From: Candidatus Poribacteria bacterium
Lineage (GTDB): Bacteria; Poribacteria; WGA-4E; WGA-3G
Assembly: GCA_965242965.1 (NCBI GenBank)
Contig: OZ251518.1
Span: 576,001-640,000, forward strand
Direction of reading: 5' to 3'
Length of the DNA stretch: 64,000 bases
Shown here: piece by piece, positions 3,583 to 54,287 of the stretch
How positions within the stretch are numbered: position 1 is the stretch's first letter
How the letters are laid out: every line of letters begins with the position of its first letter
The notes under the pieces: model-generated
Databases searched by the model: none
What the model was told of the DNA's origin: nothing
Seen by the model: only the letters and a program-made list of their open reading frames with translations
Position numbers and translations under genes: made by a program

Positions 3583-4476
3583 ATGAAAATCGTTGAATAT
3601 ACCCCTGAATTGCTGAAGCCGATAACTGCCTGCTACAACCGCCTCACCGCGAATGTACCGCACTGCTATCCCGTAACCGAAACGGAATTTGGTGAAGAGT
3701 TGGCGAGCACCCCATCAGAGGAGCACCCTGACATCGTTTTGATTTCGCAGGATACCTTTGTTGCGACATCGGACGACATTGTGCTTGGATTTGTCCAAGC
3801 GCGCGTTGACGAATTGAGGCAACATGCGTGCAACCTCGGCATTATCAGGTTTCTCGGCTACCTCCCCGGCGAACGCCGCGTAGGACAAGCACTGCTTGAA
3901 AAAGCGGAGGCACACTTAAAAACGCAAGATTCAACACGCATCGTCGCCGTTCCGCAAAAATACCGCTACCGCTTCTATCATTTCGGACACGCCTATCTCT
4001 CCAATGGACTCGCACCGGTGCAGGCACTCCTCGCCTTCAACGGCTATGAACGTACCGCTGGCGAGGTGTTTTTGGCGTGGGAGAACTACGATGTCGTGCC
4101 AACGCCGCCCGCGCAACCCGTGGAGATTACTGTCGAATGGACAGAAGGTAGAGGCAAACACCCAAACTGCACCGTGCGCGGTGTCCGCGATGGAGAACAG
4201 GTAGGCGTTTGCGAATCGCTCTGTGGCGGCGAATTCTCCAGCCATCCCGACGCGCAAGACTGGCTGCACACCATGTGGCTCGGTATTGAGGAGGAATTCC
4301 AAGGACAAGGAATCGGCCGCTATCTACTCCAATGCGCGCTCCACGAAATGCGCAAGGTAGGATACCGCCACGCGCTCATTAGCACGGCATGGGATAATCA
4401 CCGCGCCTTCCTCTTTTACAGCAACTTCGGCTACCGCGTCACGGATTGGACGTATGAATTTTCAAAACGTTTGTGA
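3583..4476 (+). CDS. Tandem-domain GNAT N-acetyltransferase
   Basis: RRVGQALL and FQGQGIGRYLL acetyl-CoA motifs; N-x-x-A-x-x-FY-x-x-x-GY. Confidence 0.85.
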   Translation: MKIVEYTPELLKPITACYNRLTANVPHCYPVTETEFGEELASTPSEEHPDIVLISQDTFVATSDDIVLGFVQARVDELRQHACNLGIIRFLGYLPGERRVGQALLEKAEAHLKTQDSTRIVAVPQKYRYRFYHFGHAYLSNGLAPVQALLAFNGYERTAGEVFLAWENYDVVPTPPAQPVEITVEWTEGRGKHPNCTVRGVRDGEQVGVCESLCGGEFSSHPDAQDWLHTMWLGIEEEFQGQGIGRYLLQCALHEMRKVGYRHALISTAWDNHRAFLFYSNFGYRVTDWTYEFSKRL

Positions 4477-7400
4477 TACCTATTTGCGAGACATCCGCCG
4501 CACGCATGAGAACCCGCTCGCAACCGGGGAGCTCTCCCTACATCGGCATTTAACGACGTTCTTGGAGCAAGCCGCTGTCTGCCTCGGCCATAATATCACG
4601 ATAACGCATGAACCGCGGTTGCTTGACATCGGCAGACCGGATTTCATCGCCACGGATACGAGCCAAAACGCAGTGGGCTCCATTGAGGCGGAGACGTTTG
4701 GCACCGATTTAGACGCGCTCACCGGCCATGCGAAAACGCAGAACGCGCGGTTCATTGAAAATGTGGATAATTTTATCCTTACCAATTTCGTTGAATTTCG
4801 TCTGTATAGTGGGGGTGCATTGCGTGCAACGTCACAGGTTATCCCGGGGGCGTTGACGAAAGACGAAACACGAACCCTCTTGTCGCGGTTTTTTGGTGCG
4901 GAGACAGTGCCGCTTGCAACACCGGAGGCACTCGCCAAGCACCTCGCACGGCGCACGCGCGAATTACACACGCAAATCGCAACGACATTAACCAACGAAA
5001 ACAGCAACATATACGGCATGTTCTCGGCGTTCAAAGAGATGCTGCTCGTCACTTTAACACCGACAGATTTCGCCGATATGTATGCACAGACATTGACGTA
5101 TGGCCTCTTCGCGGCGCGTTGCACGCTCCCGCATGCAACGCAGTTTTCGCGGTTGACAGCTGCGGCCGCGGTGCCGCGTTCAAACCCGTTTCTGCGGCAA
5201 CTTTTCCACCACATCGCCTCGCCAAATTTGGAGAGCAACATCACGTGGATTTTAGACGAGATTGTGCAGCTTTTGCGGAACGTCTCTGCCGAGATGCTTA
5301 GCACGGCGTTTGACGCGCGCACGCATGCCGCAGATCCGGTTATTCATTTCTACGAGACGTTCCTCGCTGAGTATGACCCGGGGCGGCGCGTGGAGAGAGG
5401 TGTCTACTACACGCCGCAACCCGTGATTTCTTACATTGTCCGTTCTGTAGACGTGCTGCTCAAAACGAAACTCGGCAAGCCGGATGGGCTCGCTGATAAG
5501 GACGCGCTCATTTTAGACCCGGCTACCGGCACCGGTGGTTTCCTGATGGAAGTGCTGAGTTGCATCCGACGGCACGTCATGACAACCTATGGCAGCGGCA
5601 TTTGGGGGCGTTACGTGAACGAGCACTTAGCGCAGCGGCTCATCGGTTTTGAGGTTCTCGTTGCACCCTATACGATTGCGCACCTGAACCTCTGCATCTT
5701 CCTGCAAGCGCAGGGGTGGAATGAGGATATGAACAACGAGCGTCTTCGCATTTACCTCACGAACACGTTGGAGGCACCGGTGCCGCGTGAGCGATATGCG
5801 TTTGCGCAGTTTATCTCTGATGAGGCGAACGCGGCGGTTTCTGTGAAAAAAGACGCGCCTATCCTCGTCATCGTCGGCAATCCGCCGTATCCAGAAAATT
5901 CGGCGAATCCGAGCCGCGATGGCACTGGTGCACTCACGTTTATCGGGCGGCTTATTGAGGACTATAAGCGTATTGATGGGAAACCACTTGGTGAGAGGGC
6001 TTCAACAGTCCTTCAGGGCGACTATGTCAAGTTTATCCGATGGGCGCAGTGGCGAATTGACAAAACCGGTGAAGGGATTTTCGGTTACATTGTCAACAAC
6101 AGTTTCCTTGACGGCCCGGTTTTTCGTGGCATGCGGCAGAGCTTGATGGACAGTTTCACTGCCATTTACCACCTCAATTTGCATGGAAGTGCCAGAAGAA
6201 CATCTGTTGTTCCAGATGGAGAGCGGGACGAAAACGTGTTTGACATCCAACAAGGCGTATCAATCTTGTTGTGTGTTAAAGCGCGCGATGCTGCTGCGCC
6301 TGCGAGAGTCTATTACGCGGATATGTGGGGTAACCGCGCTGAAAAGTATGGCGCGCTTTTGTCCGCGGATGTTAAAACCACCGAATGGGAGGAGGTGCCG
6401 GCTGTCCCGCCGCTCTACCTCTTCGTGCCACAAAGCACTGAACACAAAGCCGAATATGAGGCCGGATGGAAAGTTTCTGACATTTTTCAGGAACATTCGG
6501 TTGGATTTTTCACGCAACGCGATAAATTGGCTGTCCATCTCTCCGAAGAGGCGGTGCGTCGAACGGTGGCAGATTTTGCTTCACTCTCAGAGGAAGAAGC
6601 GCGGGAAAAATATCAGTTGAAAAAGGATAGCCGCGATTGGCAGGTTCGTCTCGCGCAGGCAGATCTTCGTAAGCATTGTGTCAGGGAAGAAGGACATGGT
6701 GTGGTTCGTTATGCGGCAAAAGACGAATACCTCGCGCAGATGTCCTACCGGCCTTTTGATACCCGTTTCACCTACTACACAGGGCAATCGCGCGGGTTTC
6801 ACAGCACGCCGTGTCGTAAGGTTATGCATCATCTGCGTGCCGGAAAAAACCTAGCACTCTGCACATGTCGTATCGTCACGAACTCGGTTTGGCAACACGC
6901 TTTGGTGACAGACCGGATTACCGAAAAGGGATATATCTCAACGCAAAGAAGTGAGTCTTCTCACGTCTTCCCGCTCTATCTTTATCCGCATACGGAAGAA
7001 CTGGAGTTGTCTACGGAGCGTTCGCTCAATCTATCGCCTGCTTTTCTGAAGGTCCTTTCGGAACAGTTGGACTTGCCGCAAACGGCCGGGTCTGGCCTTC
7101 CCGAGGGCATTTCGCCGGAGGCGATTTTGGGGTATCTCTATGCGATTTTGCATAACCCCACCTATCGCGAACGGTATGCCGAGTTCCTAAAATACGACTT
7201 TCCGCGCATTCCGTTGCCGAGAGATTTGGCGCAGTTCCGCCAATTGTCCGCGTTAGGGGAAGAGTTGATTGACGTGCATCTGTTTCGGAACGTTGCAGTG
7301 CTGCCGCGTCATCGTTTTGAGGGCGAAGGCGATGCCGTTGTCTCGAAGTTGCGTTATGAGGCGGGACATGTCTGGATTAATACGACGCAGCATTTTGCCA

Positions 7401-7582
7401 ATGTGCCGTTGGCAGTGTGGGAGTTTGAGGTAGGTGCATATCCGGTCTGCGAGAAATGGCTGCGTGCGCGGCGGCGACAGCGGTTAACGGCTGTGGAGAT
7501 TGTGCGGTATCAGCAGGTGTTGTCTGCTGTGGGAGAGACGCTTCAGTTGATGGGAGAGATAGCGGCTGTCGGCGGCATTTAG
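4454..7582 (+). CDS. Type IIG/ISP-like N6-adenine methyltransferase with TRD; N-terminal nuclease motif altered
   Basis: GVYYTPQPV, LDPATGTGGF, GNPPY, YRPFD, LKYDFPRIP; N-terminal PD...EAE. Confidence 0.9.
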   Translation: MNFQNVCDTYLRDIRRTHENPLATGELSLHRHLTTFLEQAAVCLGHNITITHEPRLLDIGRPDFIATDTSQNAVGSIEAETFGTDLDALTGHAKTQNARFIENVDNFILTNFVEFRLYSGGALRATSQVIPGALTKDETRTLLSRFFGAETVPLATPEALAKHLARRTRELHTQIATTLTNENSNIYGMFSAFKEMLLVTLTPTDFADMYAQTLTYGLFAARCTLPHATQFSRLTAAAAVPRSNPFLRQLFHHIASPNLESNITWILDEIVQLLRNVSAEMLSTAFDARTHAADPVIHFYETFLAEYDPGRRVERGVYYTPQPVISYIVRSVDVLLKTKLGKPDGLADKDALILDPATGTGGFLMEVLSCIRRHVMTTYGSGIWGRYVNEHLAQRLIGFEVLVAPYTIAHLNLCIFLQAQGWNEDMNNERLRIYLTNTLEAPVPRERYAFAQFISDEANAAVSVKKDAPILVIVGNPPYPENSANPSRDGTGALTFIGRLIEDYKRIDGKPLGERASTVLQGDYVKFIRWAQWRIDKTGEGIFGYIVNNSFLDGPVFRGMRQSLMDSFTAIYHLNLHGSARRTSVVPDGERDENVFDIQQGVSILLCVKARDAAAPARVYYADMWGNRAEKYGALLSADVKTTEWEEVPAVPPLYLFVPQSTEHKAEYEAGWKVSDIFQEHSVGFFTQRDKLAVHLSEEAVRRTVADFASLSEEEAREKYQLKKDSRDWQVRLAQADLRKHCVREEGHGVVRYAAKDEYLAQMSYRPFDTRFTYYTGQSRGFHSTPCRKVMHHLRAGKNLALCTCRIVTNSVWQHALVTDRITEKGYISTQRSESSHVFPLYLYPHTEELELSTERSLNLSPAFLKVLSEQLDLPQTAGSGLPEGISPEAILGYLYAILHNPTYRERYAEFLKYDFPRIPLPRDLAQFRQLSALGEELIDVHLFRNVAVLPRHRFEGEGDAVVSKLRYEAGHVWINTTQHFANVPLAVWEFEVGAYPVCEKWLRARRRQRLTAVEIVRYQQVLSAVGETLQLMGEIAAVGGI

Positions 7583-26069: not shown

Positions 26070-26600
26070 CCGTAGGGGATCCGGTGGAGATCAGGCGATC
26101 GCCACCTACAGAAAAATATAACCCCCCGAATCCGTAGGGCGAGGGCCTGTCCCTCGCCAGCGTCCGCGTAATCCAACATTCGCGGGGGACAGGCCCCCGC
26201 CCTACGATGAAAAAATGCATGCCCGCGTTCACGAACAAAAAACGCCCCTTTCACCGTAGGGCGAGGGCCTGTCCCTCGCCATGCCGCGATCGCCGCGCTG
26301 ATTGTGTTTATTATTTTCACCGATTTGCAGGTTTTTGTCAATTATTTTGGACGACTATGATCGCGAGGGACAGACCCTCGCGCTACGGTGAAAAAACGCG
26401 CGCCTTTACGTTCGCGAGGGACAGGCCCTCGCGCTACGGTGAAAAAACACGTGTCTTTACGATCGCGGGGGACAGGCCCTCGCGCTACGATGAAAAAACG
26501 CGTGCCTTTACGATCGCGAGGGACAGGCCCTCGCGCTACGGTAGGAGAAAAGCCCCTCTTCACCGTAGGGCAAGGATGGCAAAGACCTGTCCCTCGCCAT
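26070..26600. repeat. REP mosaic including four tandem 51-bp units
   Basis: TCGCGAGGGACAGGCCCTCGCGCTACG at a 51-bp period from about 26360 to 26540, flanked by GTAGGGCGAGGG copies. Confidence 0.9.
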
Positions 26601-34132: not shown

Positions 34133-36025
34133 TCACAATTCAATCAATTCATCAACGCCTTCAACAATTTTCAAAAACCGATTCACTTTGACACCGGAAA
34201 AACGATGCACGGTGCCACTAGGCCACCGAATCTCCAATGCCACGTTATCTCTCATCCCCAAGCCGAAATGCACGCGCAGGTCGTTTTGTGAGAGATAACT
34301 TGAACCACTCCGCACCTCTCTCACTTGACGATGCTCACCAGCCGTGAGGACGACACGCGCACCGATGGATTTGCCGCGCAACGTGAGAATTAACCAATTC
34401 CCCATGCGAGCTCCGCCATCGTTCCGTAAAATATCCACGCTATCGCCGACATTGGAGACGACGATATCCAGATCTCCATCGTTATCCAGGTCCCCCACCG
34501 CGCTGCCGCGACTGGAACGAATTAACGCCAACCCTGAACCGCTCTCCTCGGCGACATCGATGAACGTGCCATCGCCTTTGTTCCAAAAAAGGTGGTTTCG
34601 CTGCGCATACGTCGTTGAACTATCGATGAGCGTGACGTTGTCGTGGATATGTCCATTCGCGACGAAAATGTCCTGAAACCCATCCTGGTCAAAGTCAAAA
34701 AAATTCACACCCCATGCTAAATAGGGGAGGCTGACGGTTGCGGTACGCGAGGCATCTGTCCTGTCCGTGAAAAACCCATCGCCGTCATTGTGATAGAGCG
34801 TGTTGGTTTGGTGCTGGAAGTTGGTAACCCCGAGGTCAAGGCGCGCGTCGTTGTCGTAATCACCGAAGGCGACACCCATGCCGTTTTCAACTAGACCGTG
34901 CTCGCTGAGCGCAACGCCCGCGAGTTGACTCTGCTCCTGAAACTTACCGTTCCCATCGTTGACATAAAGGAAATTGGCATCGGCATCGTTGGCGACGTAA
35001 AGTTCAGCATCACCATCGTTGTCAACATCGCCGAAGGTTACGCCTAAGCCGCGCGCCGCAAAAGTGCCAAACCCAGCCTCGCGCGTCGCTTCGGTAAATG
35101 TGCCATCGCCGTTATTCCGAAAGAAAACGTCTTTCACGCCGTGATATGCACGCGGACTGCAGTAGACCAGGATGCCGTTGACCCGGCACGGCGTATGCGT
35201 TTCCACTGAAAATGTAACGTAGTTCGCGACGTAAAGTTCCAGGTCTCCATCAGCGTCCACATCTGCGAAGGCACAGCCTGCGCTCCACGCCGGCACCTCA
35301 ACGCCTGCCGCCGCCGTTGTATCGGTAAACGTCCCATCACCGTTATTCCGATAAAGCACGTTCGGACCGAAGTTCGTCACGTAAATATCCAGCCAACCGT
35401 CATTATCATAATCGCCGACGCAGACCCCTACCCCGTAACCGCGATGTCCCACGCCGCTCGCTTCAGTAACATCAACGAAATGCCCGTTGCCATCGTTGCG
35501 ATAGAGACGATTCATCGCCGTAGGAGAGACCTCCCGGTCTCGATTCCCCGTAGGAGAGCCCTCCTGGTCTCGACTCCCCCCGTATCGGGACAAGGATGTC
35601 CCTCCTACCCGGACATCAGTAGGAGAGACCTCCCGGTCTCGACTCCTCCCCGTAGGAGAGCCCTCCTGGTCTCGATGTGTTTCGTATCGGGACAAGGATG
35701 TCCCTCCTACCCGGACATCGGTAGGCGCGCCCTCCTGGTCTCGATGCAACCTCCCCGTAGGAGAGACCTCCCGGTCTCGATTCCCCCCTGCATCCAAATT
35801 CGCGCCGTTAACGAGATAGATATCGACATCGTCATCGTTATCGTAATCAAACAACGCAACCCCAGAACCCAGCGTTTCAACGAAATACTTCTTGTAGCTG
35901 CGGCCATCTACGTGCGTGAAACTAACGCCGCTTTGCGCAGTTACGTCTGTGAATGTGACAGCCGGGCGCGCGTTCGCATAAGAAATAATAAGAGAGATGG
36001 AAATGAATAGGTATCCGATTTTCAT
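34133..36025 (-). CDS. CRTAC1-family FG-GAP / ASPIC-UnbV protein with in-frame REP insert
   Basis: Repeated DYDNDGxxD motifs; IGARV...Q.REV..GSSYLSQ...HFGLG...WPSG; insert of RD(R/Q)E(V/G)SPT repeats. Confidence 0.92.
   Translation of the reverse strand: MKIGYLFISISLIISYANARPAVTFTDVTAQSGVSFTHVDGRSYKKYFVETLGSGVALFDYDNDDDVDIYLVNGANLDAGGNRDREVSPTGRLHRDQEGAPTDVRVGGTSLSRYETHRDQEGSPTGRSRDREVSPTDVRVGGTSLSRYGGSRDQEGSPTGNRDREVSPTAMNRLYRNDGNGHFVDVTEASGVGHRGYGVGVCVGDYDNDGWLDIYVTNFGPNVLYRNNGDGTFTDTTAAAGVEVPAWSAGCAFADVDADGDLELYVANYVTFSVETHTPCRVNGILVYCSPRAYHGVKDVFFRNNGDGTFTEATREAGFGTFAARGLGVTFGDVDNDGDAELYVANDADANFLYVNDGNGKFQEQSQLAGVALSEHGLVENGMGVAFGDYDNDARLDLGVTNFQHQTNTLYHNDGDGFFTDRTDASRTATVSLPYLAWGVNFFDFDQDGFQDIFVANGHIHDNVTLIDSSTTYAQRNHLFWNKGDGTFIDVAEESGSGLALIRSSRGSAVGDLDNDGDLDIVVSNVGDSVDILRNDGGARMGNWLILTLRGKSIGARVVLTAGEHRQVREVRSGSSYLSQNDLRVHFGLGMRDNVALEIRWPSGTVHRFSGVKVNRFLKIVEGVDELIEL
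35520..35781. repeat. Eight REP palindromes inside the CRTAC1 CDS
   Basis: Six GTAGGAGAG(A/C)CCTCC(C/T)GGTCTCGA-type copies plus two reverse GTAGGAGGGACATCCTTGTCCCGAT. Confidence 0.92.
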
Positions 36026-39000
36026 AGGCGCAGTTCCGGCAATCCCTCCACAATCCGCAACGTCTCCAAACTCACCGTAATCACCGAACCGATGAGTTCC
36101 ACGAGATACCGCGGGCGCGCCGCATCGTTCGGATCGTTGACAATGCCACTCCGTTTATCTGTCTTCACCTGATACTGATCGATCACCCACTCCAACGCTG
36201 AACGGGTGCCGAGCCGATACGCAAACGCCTCTGCCGGAATATCTGCCAACGTGAGATACTCGTTATATTTCAGTTGCGTTTTGTCCTTGGATAACCGCAT
36301 CCGTTCCACGCGCAAGTCAAGCGGCGCATCAGGTTTGGTGATGAAATTGAGCGGATACTGGGGCGATGTCTCATAATTGAGGTGCAGTTCGGCGAGTTGC
36401 GCACCGGCGTTCGCGAATGCCCAGAAGTCCTCGGCATAGGGGATGTGCGGTAAATCGCGCTTCATGTCGGCGGCGTAACGTTCGCGATATTCGGGATGGT
36501 GCAAGACAGCGTAATTATAGTGGAAAATATCCCACTTTGTGATAGTGGTATCGCCGTAATGTGCGCGGAAGTCTTGCAACGCCCAGTCGGTGATGTTTTC
36601 GCGGCGGTTAGTGCCATCTTCATCGTAAATATAGAAGGGGAAGCATTGTGAACCGCTTTGCGGCATGCTGTCGCAAATTTTGTTCGTCATGAGCGCGAAC
36701 ATGGGCCAGTCTTGCCCCGTTTTGAGCCAGATGACCTGGTTTTCTCTTTCGGTATCAAGAATGGGAAAGATAGAGGGAAATCTCCCAACCCGTTCGTTAA
36801 GCGTTCTGTCAAAATAGAGAGTTGACTTTGTAAACGGACGATAGAGGGTTGTCCGAATGTTCTCGGGCACGAATTCAATGGGCATCCCTTTTTCCAATGC
36901 CGATTTCAGTTTGGTGCTCCACTTGATTTTCGTGCCATCGGTATTCACGAAATTATCGACATCGACATCCTGAACTGTCCGCCGTTTCCATTTGCCCTCT
37001 TCTGCATGGTAGAAGTCGAGCATCTCGGTTAGTTTTTCGGTGAGAGTCTGTCGGTTGAAGTTGTAAACCCATGCATCGCGACTTGTTGTAACACCGAGGC
37101 TAAACGAGTGGAAGATCACTCCCTCTGCTTGTCCCTTCGTGCGTTTGGCTGATTTACTACCTATCGGGATGAAGGTTGTCCATTCGTCGCGGAGTCCTTC
37201 GGTGAGCCACGTGTGCCGTTCGTCAGGCGTGAGTGTTTGCCACGGGATATTCCCGAGGTTTTCGACTTGCGCGAGGAAGTCGAATTTCTGGTTTTTGTTC
37301 CACGCGTCATCGGTGCGGTAGTAGAAAATACGAGCAGAATTGTCCCTGTTACCGTAGGGCGAGGGCCTGTCCCTCGCCATGTCATGATCGCGGGGGACAG
37401 GCCCCCGCGCTACGGTAGAGAGCGGTTCTTCTGCGTCATGATCGCGGGGGACAGGATTGTCCCCGTTACCGTAGGGCGAGGGCCTGTCCCTCGCCATGTC
37501 ATGATCGCGGGGGACAGGCCCCCGCGCTACGGTAGAAAACGGTTCTTCTGCGTCGCGCTCGCGGGGGACAGGATTGTCCCCGTTACCGTAGGGCGAGGGC
37601 CTGTCCCTCGCCATGTCATGATCGCGGGGGACAGGCCCCCGCGCTACGGTAGAAAACGGTTCTTCTGCGTCATGCTCGCGGGGGACAGGCCCCCGCGCTA
37701 CGGTAGAAAACGGCTCCTTCGCCGTGTTCTTGACGAAGATGTTGATGCTTACGCCGACCTGGATGCCGAAGACGCTTGCATCGGAGACGAGTTTACCTCG
37801 CCGCGCATTTCCGCCGAGGTCGAGGATATAGATCTCGTCAAAATCGGTGGCAAGATGCTTTCGCATTCCATCAAACGCCTTTGCGTCAAGAAAACCGTTG
37901 TTCGTCACTAAGGCGACGATACCCGACTTGCCGATTCTGTCCGATGCCCAGCGAATCGATTTGACATACGTATCGTAGAGTGTATTCTTGGCACTGGCTT
38001 TTGAGTCCAAGGCGTAGGTTTCCCGCAGTCGTTTGTCCATCGCGGGATACTTCCGATTTTGGTTGTTATCGTTCGCGTTCTGCTGTCCGACGTTATAAGG
38101 CGGGTTACCGATAATCACGAACATCGGTGCAGTCTTCTGTTTCTCGACGCGCGCCGTGTTTTCGGCGGTTAAGAGGGACAGCTGCCGGTCTTCCGCCAGA
38201 TCGAACGTGTCGACAAGCGAGATGCCTTCAAACGGGAGATAGGTGTTGGTGGCACTGTAAAACTCGCGTTCGATGTTGAGGCTGGCGATGTAATACGGTA
38301 GCAACAGCACTTCGTTGCACCAGAGTTCGGAACGATATTTCGCTTCCAGTTTGAACGTGTCAATTTCGCGCATCAGGCGGACAATGAAATTGCCGGTGCC
38401 GACGAACGGATCGATGATATGAACGCCTTCATCGGAAAGCGAACGTCCGAACTCGGTTTGGAGGAGATGGTTTACGCTCTTCACCATGAAGTCAACGATA
38501 GGTTGCGGCGTATAGACGATGCCGTGCGTATCGGCAACGTCGGCGGATGCGCCTTGGAAAAATTGTTCGTAGACGGTATTGAGGAAGTGCTGCTTCTGCG
38601 AGAAATCGACGAGGGTGGCTGCCTCGCGTTCGATTTCGCGATAGAACCGGTCGAGGCTTTGGAGGAACTCGCCTCGGCTAAACGCCTGCGCTGCAAGGGC
38701 ATCGATGACCTTTTCGATTTCGCGGGCGATGATATTGCGGCGCGTGAAATCAGGATTGTTAAACACCGTGCGGAAGGTGCGTTCTGTCAAGAGATGCTGG
38801 ACGAGCATCTTCTCCACCGCCGCTTCGGAGAGGTTGGGGTTGATGGCGGTTTGGCAGAGTTGATGGAAATCGGCGAATGCGTTACGGAATTGCGGGTTCG
38901 TTTCGTGTTGCGTCCGGATGAGACCCGCGACCTCGCGCTCCAGTTCCGGCACGAGGGTTTTGAATTCGGCGACGGCGGCTTCCCACTTGGCGGCGTTTTC

Positions 39001-39450
39001 GCGTTCATAGCCGAAGAATAGTTGTAAAACATCGACGAGAGTGCCCGGGTCGGTGATGTCCGCGTCCAGCACTTCCTTGCCGTTCTGATAGAGAATGGCG
39101 CGTTCCGGCGTTTGGAAGAGGATGTTGTCCTGTGGGTAATCGGCATCGAACTTGGTTTGGATTTCGGCACGGAGGTTTCCGTGAACGCCTTTCGCCTCCC
39201 AAGTGCCGCGCGGTAACCGGTGCCGGTCGAACAGCATGCCATCTAAACGGATAGGATTTCTGCCGGGGACGCGAAGCGTTTGCTCACAGATGAGCGTCCA
39301 CTTTACCTGTCGTGCACAGGTTTCCAGCAGTGTTTGGAAGGCGGCGCGCACGGCGGTCTCGTGCGTGGCGCGCTGGTGCCGGTATTCGTCCAGCGCGGTG
39401 TAATAGGTAGTCACCACTTTGTGGTGCGGTTTGAGATTCAATGTCGGCAT
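36022..39450 (-). CDS. Type IIG/ISP-like restriction-modification enzyme (N6-adenine MTase + TRD) with in-frame REP insert
   Basis: IRLDG...WEAK nuclease motif; GIVYTPQPIV, IDPFVGTGNF, GNPPY, TSRDAW, YRPF, SALEWVIDQY, SGIVNDPN. Confidence 0.92.
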   Translation of the reverse strand: MPTLNLKPHHKVVTTYYTALDEYRHQRATHETAVRAAFQTLLETCARQVKWTLICEQTLRVPGRNPIRLDGMLFDRHRLPRGTWEAKGVHGNLRAEIQTKFDADYPQDNILFQTPERAILYQNGKEVLDADITDPGTLVDVLQLFFGYERENAAKWEAAVAEFKTLVPELEREVAGLIRTQHETNPQFRNAFADFHQLCQTAINPNLSEAAVEKMLVQHLLTERTFRTVFNNPDFTRRNIIAREIEKVIDALAAQAFSRGEFLQSLDRFYREIEREAATLVDFSQKQHFLNTVYEQFFQGASADVADTHGIVYTPQPIVDFMVKSVNHLLQTEFGRSLSDEGVHIIDPFVGTGNFIVRLMREIDTFKLEAKYRSELWCNEVLLLPYYIASLNIEREFYSATNTYLPFEGISLVDTFDLAEDRQLSLLTAENTARVEKQKTAPMFVIIGNPPYNVGQQNANDNNQNRKYPAMDKRLRETYALDSKASAKNTLYDTYVKSIRWASDRIGKSGIVALVTNNGFLDAKAFDGMRKHLATDFDEIYILDLGGNARRGKLVSDASVFGIQVGVSINIFVKNTAKEPFSTVARGPVPREHDAEEPFSTVARGPVPRDHDMARDRPSPYGNGDNPVPRERDAEEPFSTVARGPVPRDHDMARDRPSPYGNGDNPVPRDHDAEEPLSTVARGPVPRDHDMARDRPSPYGNRDNSARIFYYRTDDAWNKNQKFDFLAQVENLGNIPWQTLTPDERHTWLTEGLRDEWTTFIPIGSKSAKRTKGQAEGVIFHSFSLGVTTSRDAWVYNFNRQTLTEKLTEMLDFYHAEEGKWKRRTVQDVDVDNFVNTDGTKIKWSTKLKSALEKGMPIEFVPENIRTTLYRPFTKSTLYFDRTLNERVGRFPSIFPILDTERENQVIWLKTGQDWPMFALMTNKICDSMPQSGSQCFPFYIYDEDGTNRRENITDWALQDFRAHYGDTTITKWDIFHYNYAVLHHPEYRERYAADMKRDLPHIPYAEDFWAFANAGAQLAELHLNYETSPQYPLNFITKPDAPLDLRVERMRLSKDKTQLKYNEYLTLADIPAEAFAYRLGTRSALEWVIDQYQVKTDKRSGIVNDPNDAARPRYLVELIGSVITVSLETLRIVEGLPELRL
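37345..37715. repeat. Three tandem 117-bp REP-doublet units plus a partial unit inside the R-M CDS
   Basis: ACCGTAGGGCGAGGG at 37351, 37468 and 37585 (period 117 bp = 39 codons). Confidence 0.93.
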
Positions 39451-39458
39451 ATTTTCTC

Positions 39459-40235
39459 CTATGCAGCGTTCGGGAGTTGTAACGTTGTGCGGATAGCGTG
39501 GCGGACTTCAGTGCAGATATACACGGCATGTTCAACCTCCGCTTCTGTTGCATAATAGGTTTCATAGCGGACATCCATGGCGTGTGGTTTGAATCTCTCG
39601 AAGTCAAGCCGCCATGCGCGCCACTCGGGGCGCGTCGGGACGATCAGATTCAACAATTCGTTTAAATCGTGCGTCCGCGGCACCGGCAAGTTTGCCTCTT
39701 GTAGCCACGCCTTGAGGTATTTCTCGATACACATCTGCGCGTGGGACCAGATTAAGTCATAGAGTTTGGATGTCAATGCCTGTTGAAACCGCTCGATTCC
39801 TGCCCAATGTGATTCGGCTGGCCTCACTTTTTCGAGCGTCAAGGGATTGATAACCCCGTTTTCCTCCCAGATGGGCACCAAAGCATCTTCGGCGAGTTCT
39901 ATCGGCGGCAATGCGTTTTCTGTGTCGTAAAGCACGCTGCCTTTTTCGATTACCTCTCGCAGAAACCAGTCGTTGTGTGAGACGCGATACGCAATATCTG
40001 CAGGTGAACGGACGAGTAAGTCCATCGGGAACCGCTGCGGAATACGCCGCTGAATCTCGTTTCTTTTCTCTCGCCGTTCTGTCTCGGTGACATCCATCAC
40101 CACGAACAGGTCGACATCCGATTCTTCTGTCGGCGGGTTGCCATACGCGTAAGAACCGAAGAGGATAACCTGCAGCGGCGCGAATTCGCGGACAATGTCA
40201 TCGCAAGTGGCTTGAATCTGTTTTGCGGAAATCAT
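39459..40235 (-). CDS. Fused nucleotidyltransferase (MNT)-HEPN protein, copy 2
   Basis: ILFGSYAYG...ESDVDL; HAQMCIEKYLKA, PRTHDL, RY. Confidence 0.88.
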   Translation of the reverse strand: MISAKQIQATCDDIVREFAPLQVILFGSYAYGNPPTEESDVDLFVVMDVTETERREKRNEIQRRIPQRFPMDLLVRSPADIAYRVSHNDWFLREVIEKGSVLYDTENALPPIELAEDALVPIWEENGVINPLTLEKVRPAESHWAGIERFQQALTSKLYDLIWSHAQMCIEKYLKAWLQEANLPVPRTHDLNELLNLIVPTRPEWRAWRLDFERFKPHAMDVRYETYYATEAEVEHAVYICTEVRHAIRTTLQLPNAA

Positions 40236-41017
40236 GAGGTTGTATCTCCGTTGTTCGGGAGTTGTAGCGTTGTGCGGATAGCGTGGCGGACTTCGGTGCA
40301 GATATGCACAGCATGTTCAGCGTCTGCCTCCGTCGCGGAATAGGTTTCATAGCGGACATCCACGGCGTGTGGCTTGAATCTCTCGAAGTCAAACCGCCAT
40401 GCATGCCACTCGGGGCGCGTCCGCACAATCAGGCGCAACAACTCGTTTAAATTGTGCGTCCGAGGCACACGCAGATTCGCCTCCTGCAGCCACGCCTTCA
40501 GGTATTTTTCGACACACTGCTGCGCGTGGAAACAGATTTGATCGCGGAGAGGTCTGGGTGCCTGCTGCACCAGTGTCAGCATCGTATCCCAATCATCCTC
40601 AGCATTCTGCACTTTCTCGCGTGTCAATGGATTCATGGTCCCGTTTTCTTCCCAGACCGGCACCAAAGCATCCTCGGCGAGTGTCATCGGCGGCAATGCG
40701 TCTTCTGTCTCGTAAAGCACGTGCCCTTTTTCGATTACCTCGCGGAGGAACCAGTCGTTATGCGAGAAACGATACGCGATATCCTCCCGCGAACGAACCT
40801 GCAAATCGAGAGGGAAACGTTCGGGGATACGTTCTTTAATCTCGCATCGCTGCTGCCACGTCTCTGATTTTAGAATATCCATCACAACGAGCAGATCGAT
40901 GTCGGAGTCTTCAGTTGGCGCGCCATATGCGTAAGAACCGAAGAGGATAACCTGCAGCGGCGCGAATTCGCGAACGATGTCATCGCAGGTGGCTTGAATT
41001 TCTTTTGCGGAAATCAT
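40232..41017 (-). CDS. Fused nucleotidyltransferase (MNT)-HEPN protein, copy 1
   Basis: ILFGSYAYG...DSDIDL; CFHAQQCVEKYLKA, PRTHNL, RY; ATGA overlap with copy 2. Confidence 0.88.
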   Translation of the reverse strand: MISAKEIQATCDDIVREFAPLQVILFGSYAYGAPTEDSDIDLLVVMDILKSETWQQRCEIKERIPERFPLDLQVRSREDIAYRFSHNDWFLREVIEKGHVLYETEDALPPMTLAEDALVPVWEENGTMNPLTREKVQNAEDDWDTMLTLVQQAPRPLRDQICFHAQQCVEKYLKAWLQEANLRVPRTHNLNELLRLIVRTRPEWHAWRFDFERFKPHAVDVRYETYSATEADAEHAVHICTEVRHAIRTTLQLPNNGDTTS

Positions 41018-41054
41018 GAGGTTGTGTCTCCGTTTTTTTTGGGGTTTTGATTTT

Positions 41055-41084
41055 AGTATAACATGCAAAGGTCGGAAATGTCAA
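41055..41084 (-). promoter_or_regulatory. sigma70 promoter of the MNT-HEPN / R-M / CRTAC1 run
   Basis: TTGACA-N18-TATACT with TG extension. Confidence 0.6.
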
Positions 41085-53333: not shown

Positions 53334-54287
53334 TTATTGAGAACGTTCATTATCTTCAAACCCCAGTTCTGCAACTTCTTCATTCGTAAGTTGTCGGACG
53401 CTGACGCGCCCACTCGCCGCCTCAACGGTGACAGACATCACCCGATTTTGACGATTACGAAGATAAATCTGTGTATCCTCAGAAGACGCAGTCGGCGAGA
53501 AGTAGACATACTCCACTCCCGAATTGGCGTGCGCTGTCTGTCCGTTATGGTTCGTTATCACTGCTTCAAGCGTCACCTGCTGTTCCAACGCCTGCGGCAC
53601 GCCGAGGATGCCGCCCGTGCGCGTTAATCCCTGTTGGACAGTTTCCGCTGCGGTGGTGTTTTGTCGAAAAGTCGTTCCCTCTGTCAGCACCGAAGCCAGC
53701 GGTTCTTGCGGATTGAACGTTTCGCTGGAGGCGAGCCAGCACTGCTCCCTGTCCAGGTCTAACACGACGAGATGCCCTGTCCGTTCCGTGATGGCCATAT
53801 CTCGCGCGAAAACGAGCAGGTTGCGGACAGTTTGCGCCGATGCCTTCAATCGGCGTGTCGAAGCAAAGCCTTTCAGCGCGGGCATGGAAATCGCGGACAG
53901 CACGGCGATGATTGCCATGACGAGGAGTAGTTCCATCATCGTGAAGCCGTGCGCGGAAACGTTTTTGGTTTCTGTCGGGCGATCGCGAGGGACAGGCCCT
54001 CGCGCTACGGCAGCCGGAGCGGTTTTTGTCTTAAACTGGCGATCGCGAGGGACAGGCCCTCGCGCTACGGTGTCCGGAGCGGCTTTCGTCTTAAGCGGAT
54101 GTTCGCGAGGGACAGGCCCTCGCGCTACGGTGTCCGGAGCGGTTTTTGTTTCAAGCGGGCGATCGCGAGGGACAGGCCCTCGCGCTACGGTAGCCGGATA
54201 GACGGTATCCGGATAGGACGAGTGTGCGTCAGTTGTTCGCCTGCTGCCCTGACTGCCAATTGGTAATGTCCGCGTCAAAATTCTCAC
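53334..54287 (-). CDS. gspH: Minor pseudopilin GspH-like with REP-expanded leader (start uncertain)
   Basis: HG|FTMMELLLV, L...A..V...L.FAR..AI, F.P, V....GRV; only in-frame starts seen are GTG 54287 and TTG 54278. Confidence 0.75.
   Translation of the reverse strand: MRILTRTLPIGSQGSRRTTDAHSSYPDTVYPATVARGPVPRDRPLETKTAPDTVARGPVPREHPLKTKAAPDTVARGPVPRDRQFKTKTAPAAVARGPVPRDRPTETKNVSAHGFTMMELLLVMAIIAVLSAISMPALKGFASTRRLKASAQTVRNLLVFARDMAITERTGHLVVLDLDREQCWLASSETFNPQEPLASVLTEGTTFRQNTTAAETVQQGLTRTGGILGVPQALEQQVTLEAVITNHNGQTAHANSGVEYVYFSPTASSEDTQIYLRNRQNRVMSVTVEAASGRVSVRQLTNEEVAELGFEDNERSQ
53980..54192 (-). repeat. Four tandem 60-bp REP units
   Basis: TCGCGAGGGACAGGCCCTCGCGCTACGG at an exact 60-bp period. 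Confidence 0.93.

Follow-up and report, generated by a model that had tools for sequence, protein, structure and literature searches.

Repetitive extragenic palindromes (REPs) tagged with GTAG or CGTC have been described as short GC-rich palindromes of high copy number that lie mostly between genes and that in some cases stand in frame within known genes, often as dimers or clusters (Di Nocera et al., PMC3733652). The cases given in the available text of that paper typically encode stretches of 20–30 aa, with clusters of 43–82 aa, and include different REPs that stand at much the same place in recB of two Xanthomonas species. Rickettsia palindromic elements (RPE; Ogata et al. 2000, as cited in PMC3184786) are single elements of ~105–146 bp, some of them CGTC-tagged. 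Here we describe an array of REPs within the gene for a single-chain restriction–modification (R-M) enzyme of the DrdV kind, located in a 64,000-nucleotide stretch (positions 576001–640000 of contig OZ251518.1, hereafter C1) of the Candidatus Poribacteria bacterium genome GCA_965242965.1 (hereafter G000). This whole stretch is referred to as the window. The enzyme, P0001, is the product of the open reading frame (ORF) 36022..39450 on the minus strand, and its array is probably a tolerated insert of selfish DNA.

DrdV, an enzyme of Type IIL, is one chain composed of a nuclease, a helical connector, a methyltransferase (MTase, residues 295–635) and a domain for target recognition (TRD, positions 636–1029) (bioRxiv 10.1101/2021.01.06.425610). 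The available text of that preprint lists D64, E79 and K81 as active-site residues, F562, D564 and K567 as contacting the flipped adenine, and Q485, K486 and K488 of the MTase together with N673, R721, Y764, D803 and K807 of the TRD as base contacts.

The repeated element, REP1, has the 19-nt core GCGrGGGACAGGCCCyCGC, which forms a 7-bp stem around a 5-nt loop, followed by nCTACGG. We counted 2646 strict copies in G000, in all of which CTACGG follows the core by construction of the pattern; the reversed pattern gave no match, and the REP1 matches are therefore not due to chance. Two other genomes of the same genus contain 453 and 346 strict copies, whereas a search of another 28 genomes belonging to the same family or order gave no strict match. 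With a loose core, 4106 copies are present on C1, where REP-type matches, including a second family of the form GAGACC...GGTCTC, amount to 5416 in 2301 clusters. Every core in the array is flanked by GTAG or CTAC. REP1 is thus a short, GC-rich, GTAG/CTAC-tagged palindrome, dispersed in high copy and restricted to a lineage, and by its sequence the array is a cluster of GTAG-tagged REPs, that is, of small selfish palindromic repeats or those of the REP-associated tyrosine transposase (RAYT) type. Read from the sequence, REP1 is free of stop codons in five of its six reading frames, so that an open frame across it proves little.

Tandem Repeats Finder reported a period of 117 at 37335..37689 (3.0 copies, 96% matches, score 661), with sub-periods of 54 and 63 bp that overlap the array and extend to 37713. 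Each 117-bp unit, equivalent to 39 residues, consists of a head-to-head REP1 doublet plus a hybrid hairpin; the array as a whole contains seven REP1 cores, four in one orientation and three in the opposite one, and two hybrid hairpins (Table 1). When folded as RNA, the insert reaches −241.9 kcal/mol (z = −13.4 against 100 shuffles). The sole long frame crossing the array is that of P0001; another ORF, 37213..37911 on the plus strand, also runs through it. Between SINIFVK, which ends at residue 574, and ARIFYY, which begins at residue 706, lie 131 residues (393 nt) that include 22 P, 18 R and 16 D. A turn of 8 residues has here become one of 131, and relative to the usual loop of 6–10 residues in related proteins the gain is about 120 aa; the distant paralogue 4454..7582 has the short loop ILLCVKARDAAAPARVYY at this site. 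A first-pass annotation of the window had proposed an in-frame array of REP doublets, three 117-bp units plus a partial one, that adds about 120 aa between SINIFVKN and ARIFYY and is lacking in the paralogue at 4454; the repeat analysis, the mapped cores and the ORF bear out each of these points.

We compared the junctions with Logan contigs from four public sequencing runs. The left junction is crossed by assembled contigs X2 (37283–37373) and X4 (37300–37374) and the right junction by X1 (37689–37852) and X4 (37685–38328). Because these junction-crossing contigs come from the runs of three studies, the edges of the array are not an assembly artefact. Orthologues in independent assemblies carry the same kind of array.

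P0001 contains the Pfam domains ISP_coupler, N6_Mtase, Eco57I and Type_ISP_C, and PADLOC classified it as REase_MTase_IIG, a Type IIG enzyme–methyltransferase (E 5e-234). Its best solved relative is the 1029-aa chain of PDB 7lo5/7lvv (E 1.2e-189), and the match falls into two stretches (P0001 residues 28–577 and 702–1138) that are interrupted exactly at the insert. We identify this chain with DrdV from its length and from the fit of the published residue numbers to our alignment, the accession being absent from the preprint text. Like DrdV, P0001 is a single chain of ~1000 aa with an N-terminal PD-ExK nuclease, a helical connector, a gamma-type N6-adenine methylase bearing NPPY and a C-terminal TRD, and with no ATPase; unlike DrdV, it has 131 residues where DrdV has a three-residue turn (581–583), and the TRD core is not conserved between the two. 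D70, E85 and K87 of P0001 align with DrdV D64, E79 and K81, and NPPY 449–452 aligns with DrdV N448–Y451; all of these are invariant in a 62-sequence alignment (A1), which agrees with the earlier statement that the catalytic motifs are retained. The ratio of nonsynonymous to synonymous substitution rates (dN/dS) between P0001 and seven paralogues is 0.12–0.15 in the N-terminal part and 0.16–0.26 in the C-terminal part, values that are rough since dS exceeds 1 and is saturated, and shows that the domains flanking the insert are under purifying selection.

Homology also extends to the Type ISP enzymes LlaGI (PDB 5ffj, E 2e-142) and LlaBIII (PDB 4xqk, E 1e-123) in the coupler, methylase and TRD, and the insert site of P0001 corresponds to LlaGI 985/990. 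P0001 differs from both in lacking the Mrr-type nuclease and the RecA-like ATPase. A Type ISP label was rejected, as LlaGI and LlaBIII match only from the coupler on (from residues 582 and 746, respectively) and Pfam detected no helicase family; a label as a member of the MmeI family was rejected in favour of DrdV-like.

The alignment places the insert between DrdV residues 580 and 584, inside the methylase domain and about 50 residues ahead of the MTase/TRD boundary defined by the DrdV authors. The strand that precedes it comes right after the residues aligned to DrdV F562, D564 and K567. An AlphaFold2 (AF2) model of P0001 built on the 62-sequence alignment was poor (mean predicted local distance difference test score, pLDDT, 48; predicted template modelling score, pTM, 0.33) and was used for local secondary structure only. 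As far as the alignment and the predicted strands indicate, the insert site is the turn of a beta-hairpin in the methylase domain, not the MTase/TRD junction at which the first-pass annotation had put it.

Table 1. Features of the R-M gene and its REP array (window coordinates)
Feature	Position	Strand	Basis
Gene for the 1142-aa single-chain R-M enzyme P0001, DrdV-like Type IIL	36022..39450	-	ORF, Pfam, PADLOC, PDB match
PD-ExK nuclease motif D70 ... E85-A-K87	39190..39243	-	Ungapped DrdV alignment, offset 6
Helical connector, Pfam ISP_coupler, residues 178-279	38614..38919	-	E 4.9e-16
Core of the N6-adenine methylase, residues 286-521 (Pfam N6_Mtase); DPFVGTGNF (motif I) at 347, NPPY 449-452	37888..38595	-	
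Variable cassette 1, ~residues 450-500, matching DrdV Q485, K486, K488	37951..38103	-	
Predicted beta strand VSINIFVK, residues 567-574, last before the insert	37729..37752	-	AF2 model (low confidence); aligns with DrdV 569-576
Loop, 131 codons, nearly all REP-derived, P/R/D-rich	37336..37728	-	pLDDT 22-27, without secondary structure in AF2 model
Tandem array: 117-bp unit x 3.0 (37335-37689) plus extra partial unit	37335..37713	.	Tandem Repeats Finder and REP mapping
REP1 core GCGAGGGCCTGTCCCTCGC, with TACCGTAG before	37359..37377; more copies 37476-37494, 37593-37611	.	
REP1 core GCGGGGGACAGGCCCCCGC, then GCTACGGTAG	37390..37408; more copies 37507-37525, 37624-37642, 37678-37696	.	
Hybrid hairpin GGGGACAGGATTGTCCCC	37447..37464; second copy 37564-37581	.	
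Predicted beta strand RIFYYR, residues 707-712, hairpin return strand	37315..37332	-	AF2 model (low confidence); aligns with DrdV 587-592, IWYH
Variable cassette 2, ~residues 780-930, TRD core, matching DrdV N673, R721, Y764, D803, K807	36661..37113	-	
Pfam Type_ISP_C specificity domain, residues 779-1119	36094..37116	-	E 3e-99

The same turn is filled repeatedly within the family. G000 encodes 22 close paralogues of P0001, with N-terminal parts 56–80% identical, and 6 distant ones; 20 of the 22 are intact. A REP-derived peptide occupies the turn in eight close paralogues, seven of which are intact, with loops of 19 to 131 aa, and the other 14 have 6–10 residues there. Among 140 family sequences (120 database homologues and the 20 intact G000 paralogues), the loop ranges from 8 to 132 aa and contains a recognisable REP peptide in 96. 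Some of these peptides come from REP1, read in either orientation and in four frames (STVARGPVPR, ARDRPSPYG, RGTGPRATV and SAGACPPRS), and others from further families, namely REP2 (RRDLPVS) and REP3 (GQGCPSYP). In other genera and phyla (Latescibacterota, Caldilineaceae and other Poribacteria), all of the 44 loci, out of 80, that were matched by pattern have a loop of 6–18 aa without a REP1-type peptide. The array of P0001 therefore has the marks of an in-frame intragenic REP insertion: it lies inside a recognisable gene, the frame is kept, and homologues in other genera are without the REP.

Loop length also turns over rapidly. Outside the loop, P0003, P0004 and P0005 match P0001 at ~95–100% identity over all 40-residue segments, and their loops measure 53, 129 and 51 aa, respectively, compared with 131 aa in P0001. 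A gene of genome G002 with an 85%-identical N-terminal part carries three REP2 units in the same turn. Neighbouring tips of the family tree often differ in loop content; this tree is built on mosaic proteins and serves only for comparing the loop content of close tips, not for counting insertion events. The 8-residue loop RGEGQREP, present in some relatives, differs at the DNA level from the single-REP form by the loss of 24 nt that lie between two direct repeats of ACAG (L001 versus L102), and it looks like a REP deletion scar, not a naive site.

Several further observations concern the family. A second REP landing site was noticed in the loop just before the strand with the catalytic aspartate of the nuclease (P0001 residues 60–67, window ~39250–39273), which in paralogues G000:C1:1984703.. 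and 4435286.. is filled by three to four REPs of mixed families. Many database homologues are 19–88 aa longer ahead of the methylase loop. Copies of the DrdV-like gene are numerous also in sponge-symbiont metagenome-assembled genomes of other phyla, one Caldilineaceae chromosome accounting for 16 of the best 80 loci.

Selection on the reading frame can be seen in the spacing of the repeats. For adjacent REP1 copies of the same orientation, the spacing is divisible by three in 49 of 59 pairs that lie within long open frames, compared with 433 of 1354 pairs elsewhere. The array itself is not of the phase-variable simple-sequence kind, in which the unit is not divisible by three and a change in copy number switches the frame, as its periods of 117, 54 and 63 bp are all divisible by three. 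What the frame filter removes is shown by the paralogue at G000:C1:4435286.., which is frameshifted in its REP array by a partial REP deletion (4437130–4437330). Another paralogue (2790506..) is frameshifted near its 3′ end.

In-frame REPs are also present in genes unrelated to R-M systems. Across G000, 160 open frames cross REP clusters with at least 80 codons on either side. We tested 20 multi-REP ORFs outside the R-M family, chosen from 33 that met stricter limits: Pfam domains were found on both sides of or across the REP cluster in 13, on one side only in three, and not at all in four. The 13 host genes encode a glycosyltransferase, an acyl-CoA ligase, a CCA-adding enzyme, a UvrD-like helicase-exonuclease, a diacylglycerol-kinase-like protein, a DUF6785 protein, an Eco57I/MmeI-type methylase, a BNR protein, a UvrA-like protein, a transglutaminase-like protein, an aminotransferase, an M28 peptidase and QueG. 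In-frame REP insertion is a known kind of event, of which the array in P0001 is one of many in G000. Up to six in-frame REPs occur in the genes for the CCA-adding enzyme, the UvrD-like and UvrA-like proteins, the aminotransferase and QueG (L116, L118, L125, L127 and L132), and the repair-gene hosts echo a bias to repair genes noted by Di Nocera et al. in the portions of their paper available to us. Two further REP1 arrays in the window (26359–26542 and 53976–54198, periods 51 and 60) are intergenic and open in frame, and they make a GT2 glycosyltransferase ORF and a prepilin-type ORF seem longer at the 5′ end, a likely annotation trap; since the first Pfam domain or the N-terminal methylation motif comes only downstream of them, they were rejected as genic inserts.

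Compared with the intragenic GTAG/CGTC-tagged REPs known from the text of PMC3733652, the present elements are alike in their GTAG tag, in-frame clusters, repair hosts of the uvrA type and a shared site in related genes. They differ in that the 131-aa stretch of P0001 is longer than the clusters of 43–82 aa reported there, and in that members of a multi-copy paralogue family have the same turn filled, with REPs from at least three families. The host, moreover, is a sponge-symbiont Poribacteria-like lineage outside the coverage of that paper as far as its available text goes, and no cognate RAYT was found beside REP1. A literature search, at the level of listings and abstracts, returned no paper on REPs in Poribacteria genes. 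With RPE, as characterised in PMC3184786, the array shares the occurrence of selfish palindromes in frame in many unrelated protein genes with a tolerated peptide added, whereas the units in P0001 are GTAG-tagged cores of ~19–28 bp in tandem arrays that change in copy number.

The data demonstrate the REP identity of the insert, its in-frame position, its recurrence at the turn, the rapid turnover of its length among orthologues and the genome-wide habit of such insertion in unrelated genes. The explanation in which we place considerable confidence is that P0001 carries a selfish REP insert which this DrdV-like R-M enzyme tolerates in a permissive hairpin, and which selection has filtered for frame. 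A REP would have landed in, or been inherited at, the tight beta-hairpin turn of the methylase domain; more REPs and the 117-bp doublet unit would then have built up by local duplication, insertion and deletion; and, five of the six REP1 frames being without stop codons, the genes left intact would be only those whose length variant is a multiple of three. The 131-residue P/R/D-rich segment is most likely an unstructured, tolerated surface loop, not a device that sets specificity. The earlier suggestion of a tolerated loop is accordingly the best supported of those made for this site, given the varied fillings of the turn, their fast turnover and the presence of REPs in unrelated genes.

Several points weigh against this explanation. 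No cognate RAYT flanked by REP1 was found in G000, which has two matches to PF01797 (Y1_Tnp), one of them broken, and neither locus has REP1, REP2 or REP3 within 1.5 kb; REPtrons can be missing according to the available text of Di Nocera et al. (PMC3733652), and how REP1 moves is something that we infer. The insert starts only 7–12 residues past the positions aligned with DrdV F562, D564 and K567 and may affect catalysis. That the loop is disordered and exposed appears probable from its composition and the DrdV alignment rather than from a good model, and P0001 is presumed to be made and active with the loop, its expression being predicted only. Database homologues are predicted near-full-length proteins, so that broken copies are under-sampled, and in the repeated filling of one turn targeting might be at work, not just tolerance. 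The concern of an assembly artefact, which had accompanied the first-pass annotation, is met at both edges by the contigs described above, but the array was never bridged: no Logan contig from the four runs spans the whole of it, and its copy number rests on this assembly. Depth over the REP bins is uninformative, as thousands of REP copies swamp it. As a separate observation, the intact RAYT-like Y1 transposase gene (G000:C1:3147583-3147918, minus strand, L082) is preceded by different repeat arrays, which translate as SGAGAPELQ or SSGAPAPE.

Alternative readings give the array either no working gene or a role of its own. An insertion that inactivated the enzyme, with the frame open merely since REP1 is stop-free in five of six frames, would account for arrays being open in most frames, for the two intergenic arrays swallowed by spurious 5′ ORF extensions, for the plus-strand ORF that also crosses the array and for the one paralogue that is broken at its array. 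Such a dead gene is nevertheless very unlikely: the 445 codons past the array are open and conserved, the catalytic residues are invariant over the 62 aligned sequences, seven of the eight REP-bearing paralogues are intact with dN/dS of 0.12–0.26, orthologues from independent assemblies have arrays of other lengths and yet an unbroken frame, and genic REP spacing is a multiple of three. In Type I HsdS subunits of the EcoR124I/II type, length-variable central repeats space two TRDs that read two half-sites. The first-pass annotation had named a tunable linker as one possibility. On such a reading, the number of 39-residue units would alter the MTase–TRD geometry and hence the recognised sequence or the cleavage distance. 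P0001 and HsdS do share an in-frame, variable-copy repeat in an R-M specificity protein; copy number differs between orthologues at least 95% identical, and a unit that is a multiple of three lets copy changes keep the frame. P0001, in contrast, has a single TRD and no bipartite arrangement with two half-sites to be spaced, and what is repeated in it is mobile REP DNA, placed in the turn of a methylase-domain hairpin, where the flanking strands pair together, so that loop length should not move domains. Near-identical orthologues differ 2.5-fold in loop length, and the segments matching the DrdV base contacts are unchanged among them. REP inserts of these kinds are also present in 13 or more unrelated enzymes, and no particular loop peptide is conserved, because the fillings come from unrelated REP families, orientations and frames. 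We therefore regard a tunable linker as extremely unlikely.

A further reading makes the shared array a homology patch at which paralogues swap C-terminal halves including the TRD, thereby shuffling specificities. The family is indeed mosaic, with 181 pairs whose N-terminal parts are at least 90% and C-terminal parts at most 75% identical. The best single breakpoint lies within 25 residues of the loop in 292 of 1997 informative pairs, against 1036 at residues 750–799 (where the DrdV numbering puts the MTase/TRD boundary) and 294 at residues 450–474, pairs that are not independent in that many share clades. Identity between P0033 and P0112 falls from 96% to 72% across the loop, and near-identical orthologues have a polymorphic patch just past it (residues 716–735) that partly resembles other paralogues; P0006 and P0008, on the other hand, are still 97–100% identical to P0001 at residues 741–760 and drop only at 781. 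A G002 gene has the TRD core of P0001 (80–92%) joined to an N-terminal backbone that is more distant, and another matches P0001 in the backbone and not in the TRD. The divergent blocks coincide with the segments matching DrdV base contacts, which means that diversifying selection alone could draw such profiles, and conversion tracts that end in a REP did not come to light at the DNA level. This reading is accordingly improbable; the proposal of a TRD-exchange point fails as to the main seams, which lie elsewhere, and retains the steps near the loop and the patch after it, by which a role of the loop as an occasional recombination anchor is weakly hinted. Also unlikely is that the REP-filled hairpin acts as a built-in instability site, where rearrangements switch paralogues off and seed gene conversion between them; switching off is suggested by the paralogue frameshifted in its array, and gene conversion by the polymorphic patch and the identity steps beside the loop. 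If this were true, selfish repeats would drive turnover of the restriction repertoire of the cell.

Variation in the specificity regions is concentrated in two cassettes. Cassette 1 shows 60–85% identity in homologues that are otherwise 93–100% identical, and cassette 2 shows 20–57% identity in pairs that are 93–100% identical elsewhere. The two cassettes vary together among otherwise near-identical homologues and correspond to the base contacts of DrdV, which suggests modular swapping or rapid diversification of specificity.

Genes adjacent to the R-M gene lie on the same strand. The FG-GAP/ASPIC gene encoding P0002 (34133..36025, minus strand, 630 aa), with an ATG that overlaps the R-M stop codon, contains a further in-frame REP2/REP3 array (35520..35788, period 102, 2.6 copies), which encodes RDREVSPTG and RDQEGSPTG repeats between FG-GAP repeats. 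Two tandem nucleotidyltransferase–HEPN fusion genes (39459..40235 and 40232..41068, minus strand) are located just upstream of the R-M gene and gave weak PADLOC matches to candidate defence families.

The array in P0001 provides an example of mobile hairpin DNA absorbed into apparently working proteins, their activity being presumed, and multiple-of-three spacing offers a simple measure by which selection on repeats that are translated becomes visible. As regards annotation, the REP arrays of this lineage hide in real genes and also inflate false 5′ ORF extensions. The expansion of ~1000-aa single-chain R-M enzymes in G000, with 22 close and 6 distant paralogues, is striking in itself. For R-M biology, the insert marks a hairpin of DrdV-like enzymes that accepts large insertions and could be useful for engineering, and the specificity cassettes of this R-M family swap at places other than the insert.

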